Positions 9,039 through 9,221 of a stretch of DNA of 32,917 nucleotides are shown here, piece by piece. Under the pieces are notes generated by a model that saw only the letters and a program-made list of their open reading frames with translations, was not told the DNA's origin and made no database searches. Position numbers and translations under genes: made by a program. The DNA comes from Candidatus Hermodarchaeota archaeon. GTDB taxonomy: Archaea; Asgardarchaeota; Lokiarchaeia; Sigyniarchaeales; SOKP01. The stretch covers positions 1 to 32,917 of the forward strand of contig JBHLLG010000030.1 of the NCBI GenBank assembly GCA_048885925.1, given 5' to 3'. Position 1 is the stretch's first letter. Each line of letters starts with the position of its first letter.

Positions 9039-9221
9039 TATAACCACATAAACAAGCGTGACCGGGTATTTTCCTTGTAAGCCATGACCGTAAGCAAACT
9101 TACAGTTTATAGTTTCCCATAGATCGCAACTACAGTACTATCTACAACGCACACAAGTTTAACTTCCGGGTTCGGATGGTTCCAGCGCAGTAGCGAATTG
9201 CTACTAAATTATGTGGTTATA
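9039..9221. repeat. 13-bp perfect inverted repeat (9039-9051 / 9209-9221) enclosing the permuted 5S rRNA; predicted precursor processing stem
   Basis: TATAACCACATAA at 9039-9051 and its reverse complement TTATGTGGTTATA at 9209-9221. Confidence 0.9.
9060..9179 (-). rRNA. rrf: 5S rRNA, circularly permuted (canonical 3' part 9179-9099, UUUG linker 9098-9095, canonical 5' part 9094-9060)
   Basis: Minus strand: CCAUCCGAACCCGGAAGUUAAACUUGUGUGCGUUGUAGAUAGUACUGUAGUUGCGAUCUAUGGGAAACUAUAAACUGUAAG-UUUG-CUUACGGUCAUGGCUUACAAGGAAAAUACCCGGUC. It has the 5S hallmark CCGAACCCGGAAGUUAA, loop E AGUA/GAA and a GCGA loop D. Helices I, II, IV and V pair when checked by hand. Length is 120 nt. Confidence 0.9.

Follow-up and report, generated by a model that had tools for sequence, protein, structure and literature searches.

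A permuted 5S rRNA gene in an Asgard archaeon and the probable circularization of its transcript

What kind of 5S rRNA, if any, could be obtained from a gene in which the two parts of the molecule are encoded in the wrong order? This question is raised by a locus in the window analyzed here, a stretch of 32,917 nt that represents contig C30 of a 3.9-Mb draft genome (G000; 181 contigs, 95% complete). The 5S rRNA body, 120 nt in length, occupies positions 9060–9179 of the minus strand, where the 3′ two-thirds of the molecule (9179–9099, reading CCAUCCGAACCCGGAAGUUAA...ACUGUAAG) are followed downstream by its 5′ third (9094–9060, reading CUUACGGUCAUGGCUUACAAGGAAAAUACCCGGUC). This order, together with its coordinates, had been proposed in the initial annotation of the window, and a re-reading of the sequence confirmed it to the base. 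None of the ORFs of at least 50 aa overlaps the locus, the neighboring ones ending at 8958 and beginning at 9376, and a tRNA/tmRNA search of the window returned nothing.

Read 5′ to 3′ on the minus strand, the body begins with the 3′ part of loop C and the 3′ strand of helix III (9179–9160), continues with the 3′ strand of helix II (9157–9149), and then runs through helix V, loop E, helix IV, and loop D (9147–9107). A hairpin (9087–9106) follows, formed by the 3′ strand of helix I (ACUGUAAG, 9106–9099), a UUUG loop (9098–9095), and the 5′ strand of helix I (CUUACGGU, 9094–9087), with the loop occupying the position of the free ends of canonical 5S rRNA. Loop A, the 5′ strand of helix II (9082–9074), loop B, and the 5′ strand of helix III complete the body, to 9060. 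Helix I was found to be the UUUG-closed helix of 8 bp with one G-U that had been described, and the other elements listed as retained were all located at window coordinates: helix V (9147–9142 with 9112–9107), helix IV (9135–9130 with 9122–9117), loop E (AGUA/GAA), and helix II (9157–9149 with 9082–9074), where the single U-U is accompanied by one G-U. Helix III would read CCGG/CCGG after joining of the two ends.

A search of the window against Rfam at the gathering threshold (38 bits for RF00001) returned no match, and in this sense the expectation that annotators would miss the gene was correct. When RF00001 was run in E-value mode, it scored 28.7 bits at 9209–9097, under the 38-bit cut-off. 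The alignment was good only for model positions of about 30–120, corresponding to 9179–9097 (E 8e-4 in a 651-nt search), while the 5′-most 30 model positions were forced onto the leader. Of course, a sub-threshold score is to be expected for a permuted gene; it is a test of annotation that fails here, and not a test of function. Other E-value matches near the locus, including KRAS_3UTR, CyaR, and LSU_trypano_mito (E 1.4–5), were set aside as AT-rich chance matches.

A clearer picture was obtained with a sequence-only HMM built from nine canonical 5S genes of the sister family (f2) and searched with nhmmer. On the native strand it gave two matches in swapped order, hmm 35–115 (35.0 bits, E 1e-12) and then hmm 3–26 (0.2 bits), and on the script-rotated product it gave one full-length match, hmm 4–115, at 49.0 bits. 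The predicted behavior, two swapped partial matches natively and one full-length match after rotation, was thus obtained, with this HMM of nine canonical genes rather than with RF00001.

Conservation among relatives speaks for a maintained three-way junction of helices I, II–III, and IV–V. In 43 distinct homologous cores, 93.2% of the cells in helices I, II, IV, and V were paired (helix III lay outside the alignment), as against 78.1% after shuffling and 34–46% in slid controls, and none of 500 shuffles reached 93.2%. Both-sided changes were seen at 19 of the 29 pairs, with compensatory changes in every helix, and the AGUAC and GGGAA sequences used as a motif test for loop E and loop C were invariant in the 5S homologues compared. 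The helix I hairpin was 99.7% paired in the 43 sequences, with compensatory changes at four of its eight pairs. Its loop was 4 nt long in 57 of 58 distinct precursors, most often UUCG (26), followed by UUAG (14), UUUG (9), UCCG (3), and UACG (2). Minimum-energy folds of the single sequence were no stabler than those of shuffled sequences (z −0.64 for the precursor, −0.47 for the circle), and the predicted single-sequence fold of the circular product has helices IV and V misfolded.

Does the genome have another 5S gene? The check for a canonical copy came back empty: the permuted locus is the only RF00001 candidate in G000, and also the only match to R1, a covariance model built on the permuted core, with 105.9 bits at 9163–9070. 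Two single-contig genomes of the same genus, G006 and G021, likewise have only the permuted form. Among 40 relatives, 20 of the 23 same-genus genomes had only sub-threshold RF00001 matches, and canonical 5S genes were found in 9 of 11 genomes of the sister family, at 53–69 bits. A sample of the order, comprising 150 genomes of which 130 belong to the family of the window genome (f1), gave RF00001 matches above the cut-off in only two of those 130. Both were rejected as contaminant contigs, on which the "canonical" 5S adjoins bacterial 23S rRNA (RF02541, 740 and 1396 bits), and both of the genomes concerned carry the permuted gene on another contig.

The same permuted order was found in other Asgard genomes, as a check suggested along with the initial annotation had envisaged. 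Counting group samples in which related genomes are not independent, R1 matched 117 of the 130 f1 genomes (79–109 bits), the single genome of f3, and two of four genomes of f4; the canonical f2 genes scored 29–33 bits, and within the order permuted loci scored at least 53 bits versus at most 33 bits for canonical ones. In a second order of the class, R1 matched two of three genomes of family f6, and both loci had clean BHB motifs by eye. A broader model, R2, was run on 151 genomes sampled from the whole phylum and matched 58 of them, belonging to 16 families. RF00001 matches above the cut-off were present in 48 genomes of the same sample (f12, 25/26; f17, 17/19; f21, 3/5; f15, 1/1; f31, 1/1; f2, 1/2), and none of them occurred in a family with permuted matches. 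Two of the families with neither kind of match were examined (f10 and f22), and all five of their loci were permuted. In fact, every one of the 23 loci inspected outside f1 and f3 was permuted, several of them in single-contig genomes. Besides G006 and G021, the single-contig genomes with the permuted gene include G157, G191, and G180.

A pattern scan with one genome per species yielded 57 loci, of which 54 were archaeal, mostly from Promethearchaeota/Promethearchaeia (kingdom Promethearchaeati), and two of which lie on complete chromosomes. Three bacterial loci had a longer span and were rejected as chance matches. The probable Asgard origin suggested for the window agrees with the affiliation of these relatives, and its small-GTPase genes fit as well. 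There are two such genes in the window, consistent with an Asgard genome.

The flanks of the body carry further elements, all on the minus strand. Alignment of 19 loci of the genus revealed a block conserved upstream of the gene, in which the TATA-like box lies, as well as a leader–trailer stem of 13 bp, a leader hairpin, and two breakpoints. In the window, the TATA-like box (UUAUAUAA, 9239–9246, within the conserved block ..CCGACCUUAUAUAAUGG..) is presumably part of an archaeal promoter, with a putative start site near 9216. The 5′ strand of the outer stem (UAUAACCACAUAA, 9209–9221) has a perfect 13-nt complement in the 3′ strand (UUAUGUGGUUAUA, 9039–9051), with which it pairs at 9051–9039. 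Between the outer stem and the BHB motif lies the leader hairpin, GUAGC-AAUUC-GCUAC (9190–9204), which forms a three-way junction and whose stem appears as AUAGC/GCUAU in L021 and L022 and as GGUAGC/GCUACA in L028. Archaeal transcription stops at oligo-T; two U runs within 9023–9037 (9037–9034 and 9027–9023) would presumably act as the terminator.

Directly adjoining the body, leader and trailer form a BHB motif. Its outer helix h is made of leader GCG (9186–9188) and trailer CGC (9056–9058), and its 4-bp central helix H of leader CUGG (9182–9185) and trailer CCGG (9062–9065), the latter doubling as the 5′ strand of helix III in the mature fold. The 3-nt bulges are AAC in the leader (9179–9181) and UCA in the trailer (9059–9061). 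In BHB substrates, the cut falls after the second nucleotide of each bulge. Here the predicted cuts, between 9180 and 9179 and between 9060 and 9059, release exactly 9179–9060, or 120 nt, and joining of these ends restores the canonical loop C. A helix h′ on the 5S side of this end-joining BHB was not found, and the motif is a relaxed hBH rather than a full hBHBh′. Taken alone, the window motif would not be convincing without the data from other lineages and the RNA, since h is short in this genus (3–4 bp, and 3 bp in the window) and an unconstrained BHB search was non-discriminating, with "solutions" in 100 of 160 shuffled flanks too.

What the other lineages add is a set of breakpoints with a single product. 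The two breakpoints of the genus define two types (cuts are marked by arrows). The gene of the window belongs to type A, where the leader ends in ..GCG CUGG AA↓C and the trailer starts after ..CCGG UC↓A CGC; in type B, the leader ends in ..GCG CCGG AA↓G and the trailer starts after ..CCGG AA↓A CGC. Both match the handedness of archaeal BHB motifs, in which each strand runs from the outer helix through the 4-nt H strand to the 3-nt bulge. Types A and B carry a 16-nt block at opposite ends, 5′ and 3′ respectively, because the leader CYGG can replace either CCGG strand of helix III. In the 19 genus loci, both types yield an identical helix III/loop C sequence after the predicted cut and joining. 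A third breakpoint, in loop B, was found in a GC-rich genome of family f3, with a motif of its own (CGC-CCGA-AA↓A and UCGG-AA↓A-GCG), and it also yields a canonical 5S after the predicted joining. The rotated products of all breakpoint types align colinearly with the nine canonical 5S genes of the sister family.

Both helices of the motif covary between lineages. Variants of H across lineages include CUGG/CCAG, CUGG/UCAG, CGUG/CACG, CCGA/UCGG, and GCCG/CGGC, and h elsewhere measures 4–15 bp (10–15 bp in other classes), with sequences that differ by lineage. The discarded bulge nucleotides vary (AA, AC, AU), and the retained product is constant. A first script found a fitting BHB motif in 64 of 79 loci; in the 15 without a fit, either the region of loop C held an additional insertion (13 loci) or there was a single mismatch (two loci). 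Two other approaches were of little use, a generalized regular expression that caught just 14 of 143 loci (eight distinct precursors) and a whole-alignment count of BHB pairs in which MAFFT had mixed three registers. A constrained search, with the cut at most 4 nt from a GUUAA anchor, a product of 117–126 nt, and slid controls, was therefore applied to 21 type-B precursors from many families, and it returned a single candidate site in 19. H was paired at all four positions in 21 of 21, through CG, GC, UA, AU, UG, and GU pairs. The positions h4, h5, and h6, which had not entered the selection, were paired in 21, 19, and 16 of the 21, and slid partners were mostly paired in under half. Two permuted loci of family f4, L129 and L130, showed no clean BHB on inspection. 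Another locus of that family, L020 (in genome G030), is an odd 5S-like sequence.

Further BHB motifs occur inside the gene in some relatives. Loop D contains 30 extra nucleotides in 13 of 79 loci, and these form a full hBHBh′ motif, for example CAG-UUGC-GA↓G-UUACAAC...GUUGUAA-GCGA-AA↓U-CUG, of which there is a compensatory variant, UUAC/GUGA. Predicted splicing of the insertion gives the intron-less loop D exactly. Loop C carries a 30-nt insertion at one site in 12 loci (UCCG-AA↓A...CGGG-AA↓C), L077 has another nearby, and a distant family also has a loop C intron (L158). The scanner used for such introns is noisy, with many chance matches in AT-rich flanks, and its use was confined to checking introns that alignment had revealed beforehand. 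The 5S gene of the window has neither a loop C nor a loop D intron. Since the loop D introns are predicted to splice to the intron-less sequence, these motifs are an indication of additional predicted splicing substrates within the pre-5S.

Is RNA made from the locus, and in what form? The evidence consists of assembled contigs from four metatranscriptomes of four studies (X1, X2, X4, and X11), aligned to 9000–9260; most are 90–99% alike the window and thus come from relatives in the genus rather than from this strain. In all four runs, RNA depth was zero on the trailer (bins 9000–9053) and on the leader (bins 9189–9260). Cover is confined to 9060–9179, extending to 9180 in one X4 contig, and these limits coincide with the predicted cut sites. 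Contigs start at 9179 in X1, X2, and X11 and at 9180 in X4, and four contig records end at 9060 (records 1 and 2 of X1, records 4 and 5 of X11). Such ends are those of contigs, which give neither the ends of the RNA nor the share of circular molecules.

The contigs do, however, continue beyond these limits with sequence from the opposite end of the body. Loose ends before 9060 read the plus strand of 9165–9179, and loose ends behind 9179 read the plus strand from 9060, for at most 35 nt and with one difference, a variant seen in relatives. The joint 9060/9179 is crossed in this manner in all four runs, as judged from loose ends matched by eye, the alignment output having listed no formal joints. 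One X1 contig agrees with the window in 80 of 80 bases and reaches 15 nt past the joint. Two contigs, each with a length of 150 nt (the 120-nt circle plus 30 nt), close on themselves; both contain the loop of helix I, as encoded in the genome, together with the loop C joint, which the genome lacks. If the assemblies are assumed to use 31-letter words, this is the length expected from a closed cycle of the assembly graph. The helix I loop itself (9095–9098) is read through by contigs from three runs.

The joint cannot be obtained from the DNA of this type-A genome, and the helix I loop cannot be obtained from a canonical linear 5S. Cover of the flanks would be expected of precursors. The initial annotation had taken the locus for a functional 5S gene, an inference that gains support from the compensatory changes, from the standing of the locus as the sole 5S-like one of G000, and from the RNA in four metatranscriptomes.

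From these observations, the following processing can be proposed. A stand-alone unit on the minus strand would be transcribed from about 9216 to about 9030, and leader and trailer would pair through the outer stem and the BHB (h GCG/CGC, H CUGG/CCGG, bulges AAC and UCA). The tRNA-splicing endonuclease EndA would then cut after the second nucleotide of each bulge to free 9179–9060, and the ligase RtcB would join the ends, rebuilding loop C and helix III. The product would be a covalently closed circle of 120 nt with a normal 5S fold, closed because the tetraloop already closes helix I, and this circle would most likely be the form that enters the ribosome. One gene for each enzyme was found in G000, EndA on contig C22 in the region of 7945–8169 (PF01974, 101.7 bits) and RtcB on contig C12 (PF01139, 569.6 bits). 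Both enzymes are near-universal in archaea, and so their presence lends weak support. Single-subunit EndA types are the stricter ones. It is the precedent of the permuted SRP RNA of Thermoproteus, as described in PMC4731332, that leads the locus to be read as a transcription unit on its own, with cleavage of the transcript at the BHB followed by ligation.

Other readings of the locus have to be weighed against this one. It could be argued that a decayed or misassembled 5S fragment is at hand and that the real 5S gene lies in unassembled sequence, as G000 is a draft of many contigs and rRNA genes often fail to assemble. The same arrangement recurs, however, in nine-tenths of the f1 genomes (117/130) and in the single-contig genomes G006, G021, G157, G191, and G180; compensatory changes affect every helix, RNA is present, and the only two "canonical" 5S genes of the family sit on contaminant contigs in genomes that have the permuted gene as well, which together make decay or misassembly scarcely credible. 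The RNA might also be linear in permuted order, unligated and with its ends in loop C, like the permuted 5S rRNAs reported from mitochondria (PMC4267664), and the exact start and stop of RNA cover at 9179 and 9060 would suit such a molecule. Against it, contigs of all four runs go from 9060 to 9179 and from 9179 to 9060, the flanks contain a conserved and covarying BHB, and three breakpoints leading to one joined product would be purposeless without joining. A linear, permuted 5S rRNA is accordingly a very improbable outcome.

It is easier to imagine that the circle does form but is transient, with a later opening in the helix I loop that leaves a linear 5S with canonical ends, in the manner of permuted tRNA genes and of circular pre-16S/23S rRNA. 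Contigs cannot show the ends of an RNA, and several X4 contigs do stop or start at 9090–9095, beside the helix I loop. These ends, however, fall where the loops of relatives differ (UUUG, UUAG, UUCG), as expected of a branch in an assembly graph. Moreover, the loop is just 4 nt long and mostly UUCG-like, on a fully paired 8-bp helix, and resembles a stabilizing cap more than a spacer to be trimmed; contigs of three runs read through it, none of them covering leader or trailer, and two close on themselves. These same features favor the circle as the final form, and reopening is regarded here as unlikely. A mixture of molecules that were cut and left unligated with others that were ligated and then reopened would also be compatible with the contigs. 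Some observations do count against certainty, namely the lack of an h′ helix, the short h in the genus, the single EndA gene, and RNA evidence at the level of contigs. All considered, there is good reason to believe that this is a functional permuted 5S gene whose transcript is cut at the BHB and ligated to a covalently closed 120-nt circle, most likely the ribosomal form.

A wider proposition, towards which the evidence leans slightly, is that the ribosomes of most Asgard lineages work with a circular 5S rRNA, and that the gene is viable only by way of the tRNA-splicing machinery. If this were true, the supply of 5S rRNA would hinge on EndA and RtcB in most of the phylum as sampled, which bears on how ribosomes are made in the archaea most closely related to eukaryotes. 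The breakpoints in loop C, in the 3′ strand of helix III, and in loop B, together with the fixed-site introns of loops C and D, could then be viewed as BHB elements moving within one small gene. Such moves might occur by DNA rearrangement or, conceivably, by reverse transcription and re-insertion of a circle that had been opened elsewhere. As for the linear gene, it would have been kept, or regained, by the cultured Loki-lineage family and by a few others. In practical terms, the R1 and R2 models could be used to repair genome annotations and those completeness checks that require a 5S gene. A paper on closed Asgard genomes states that their 5S genes could not be predicted (PMC8813620), a recorded gap that the permuted gene may explain.

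How does the locus compare with what is already on record? An early survey of archaeal circular RNA is said to mention 5S. In a full-text literature search that took in few subscription journals, no permuted or circular archaeal 5S rRNA and no intron of a 5S gene was found; "permuted 5S" led only to an organelle study (PMC4267664), and "circular 5S" led only to plant papers. Within the reach of that search, no earlier case of a permuted 5S gene on the chromosome of a free-living organism came to light, which would make this locus the first of its kind; it would also be the first to argue for a circular 5S rRNA. BHB introns in 5S rRNA genes, none of which was found reported, come in addition.

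Permuted tRNA genes offer one parallel. In Cyanidioschyzon merolae and Thermofilum pendens, the 3′ half of such a gene comes first, leader and trailer form a BHB-like motif, and the splicing machinery produces a circular RNA, which RNase P and tRNase Z then open again at the acceptor stem. The 5S gene shares with them the 3′ half encoded first, the BHB-like leader/trailer motif, and the predicted circle. At the equivalent position, however, it has a 4-nt tetraloop, with no sign of a spacer. A second parallel is provided by the permuted 5S rRNAs of mitochondria, for which we know of no BHB and no ligation. Described by Valach et al. 2014 (PMC4267664), they have a permuted order in common with the archaeal locus and are likewise missed by standard covariance models, and yet they are organellar, whereas the archaeal genes are chromosomal (some in single-contig genomes) and their RNA is joined.

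Archaeal ribosomal RNA itself is no stranger to this kind of processing. [quoted passage not shown] The 5S case resembles them in the BHB of its flanks and, as proposed here, in the action of the two enzymes and in a circular rRNA built into ribosomes. The 16S and 23S genes are nevertheless colinear, and their permutation occurs at the level of RNA; with 5S, it is the DNA that is permuted, and circularization would be needed to restore the fold. In the wording of the 2026 paper, archaeal circularization concerns 16S and 23S "but not 5S rRNAs" (PMC12918454).

As a precedent, the permuted SRP RNA of Thermoproteus comes closest. Plagens et al. 2015 report that the splicing endonuclease processes its termini and that these are joined to give a functional circle (PMC4731332). 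In both cases, a universal structured RNA is concerned whose canonical gene was "missing" (PMC4731332). The RNA is here the 5S rRNA, a component of the ribosome, instead of the SRP RNA, and permutation extends to most of the sampled Asgard families, as compared with some species of Thermoproteus in the published account (PMC4731332). The 5S gene has at least three breakpoints and additional BHB introns, which set it apart from the SRP RNA gene. The enzymology and protein binding were shown for Thermoproteus (PMC4731332), and the 5S case is known from sequence and RNA contigs. The mechanism proposed for 5S rRNA is therefore one of a known kind; its substrate, its scale, and its moving breakpoints are new.

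Some of the permuted 5S genes carry introns of their own. In 13 loci (L013, L015, L017, L024, L026, L028, L042, L046, L070, L080, L082, L085 and L089), loop D holds an extra 30 nt that folds as a full bulge-helix-bulge (BHB) intron, and its removal by predicted splicing would leave a loop D the same as that of intron-less genes. The central 4-bp helix, H, of this intron covaries among loci, occurring as UUGC/GCGA, UUAC/GUGA, UUGC/GCAG and UUGA/UCAG. A second BHB-like intron, likewise of 30 nt, occupies a single fixed position in loop C (..UCCG AA↓A ... CGGG AA↓C.., arrows marking the predicted cuts) and is common to distant families, being found in L048, L057, L060, L062, L064, L071, L081, L087, L088, L094, L097 and L098, as well as in L158 of family f27. 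A variant occurs in L077, where a differing insertion holds a partial duplicate of helix III.

Certain lineages have two permuted 5S genes per genome. At L159 (genome G170, contig C18) the pair forms a tandem with a spacing of about 130 nt, and in G175 (C34) and G185 (C27) the tandem spacing is about 100 nt; the single-contig genome G180 carries its two genes at distant loci (C1, 2238546 and 2590506). Canonical 5S genes were found in two genomes of f1, the family to which the window's genome belongs, at L031 (G075, C68) and L034 (G093, C263). Each lies directly 3′ of a bacterial 23S rRNA gene, one of the two containing a group I intron, and both contigs look like bacterial contaminants in their assemblies. 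Four other loci, L052, L078, L080 and L092, have 5S cores identical to those of f1 loci titled Promethearchaeota, on contigs publicly titled Odinarchaeota, Thorarchaeota or Hodarchaeota; these titles may be misassignments.

In the window, a gene a short way upstream of the 5S promoter region (9940-12117, minus strand) encodes a 725-aa protein that has a gingipain-like peptidase C25 domain (PF01364, 199 bits) and also gives some weak matches of Ig-like type. Two small-GTPase genes (TIGR00231, 72.9 and 86.6 bits; within 6120-7734, minus strand) stand on either side of a PIN-domain gene (6773-7216, minus strand; PF18477 and PF13638).

Family f4 is atypical: L020 (G030, C2, 11659-11779) is a divergent 5S-like sequence with the direct repeat UUGUCGA at either end, and L129 (G026, C97) and L130 (G028, C451) have the permuted order and a leader with two hairpins, with no clean outer helix, h, adjoining H. 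In L164, L167 and L157 (families f10 and f18), a leader hairpin is inserted between a long h and H, creating a three-way junction that resembles the one formed with the GUAGC..GCUAC leader hairpin of the window (9204-9190).
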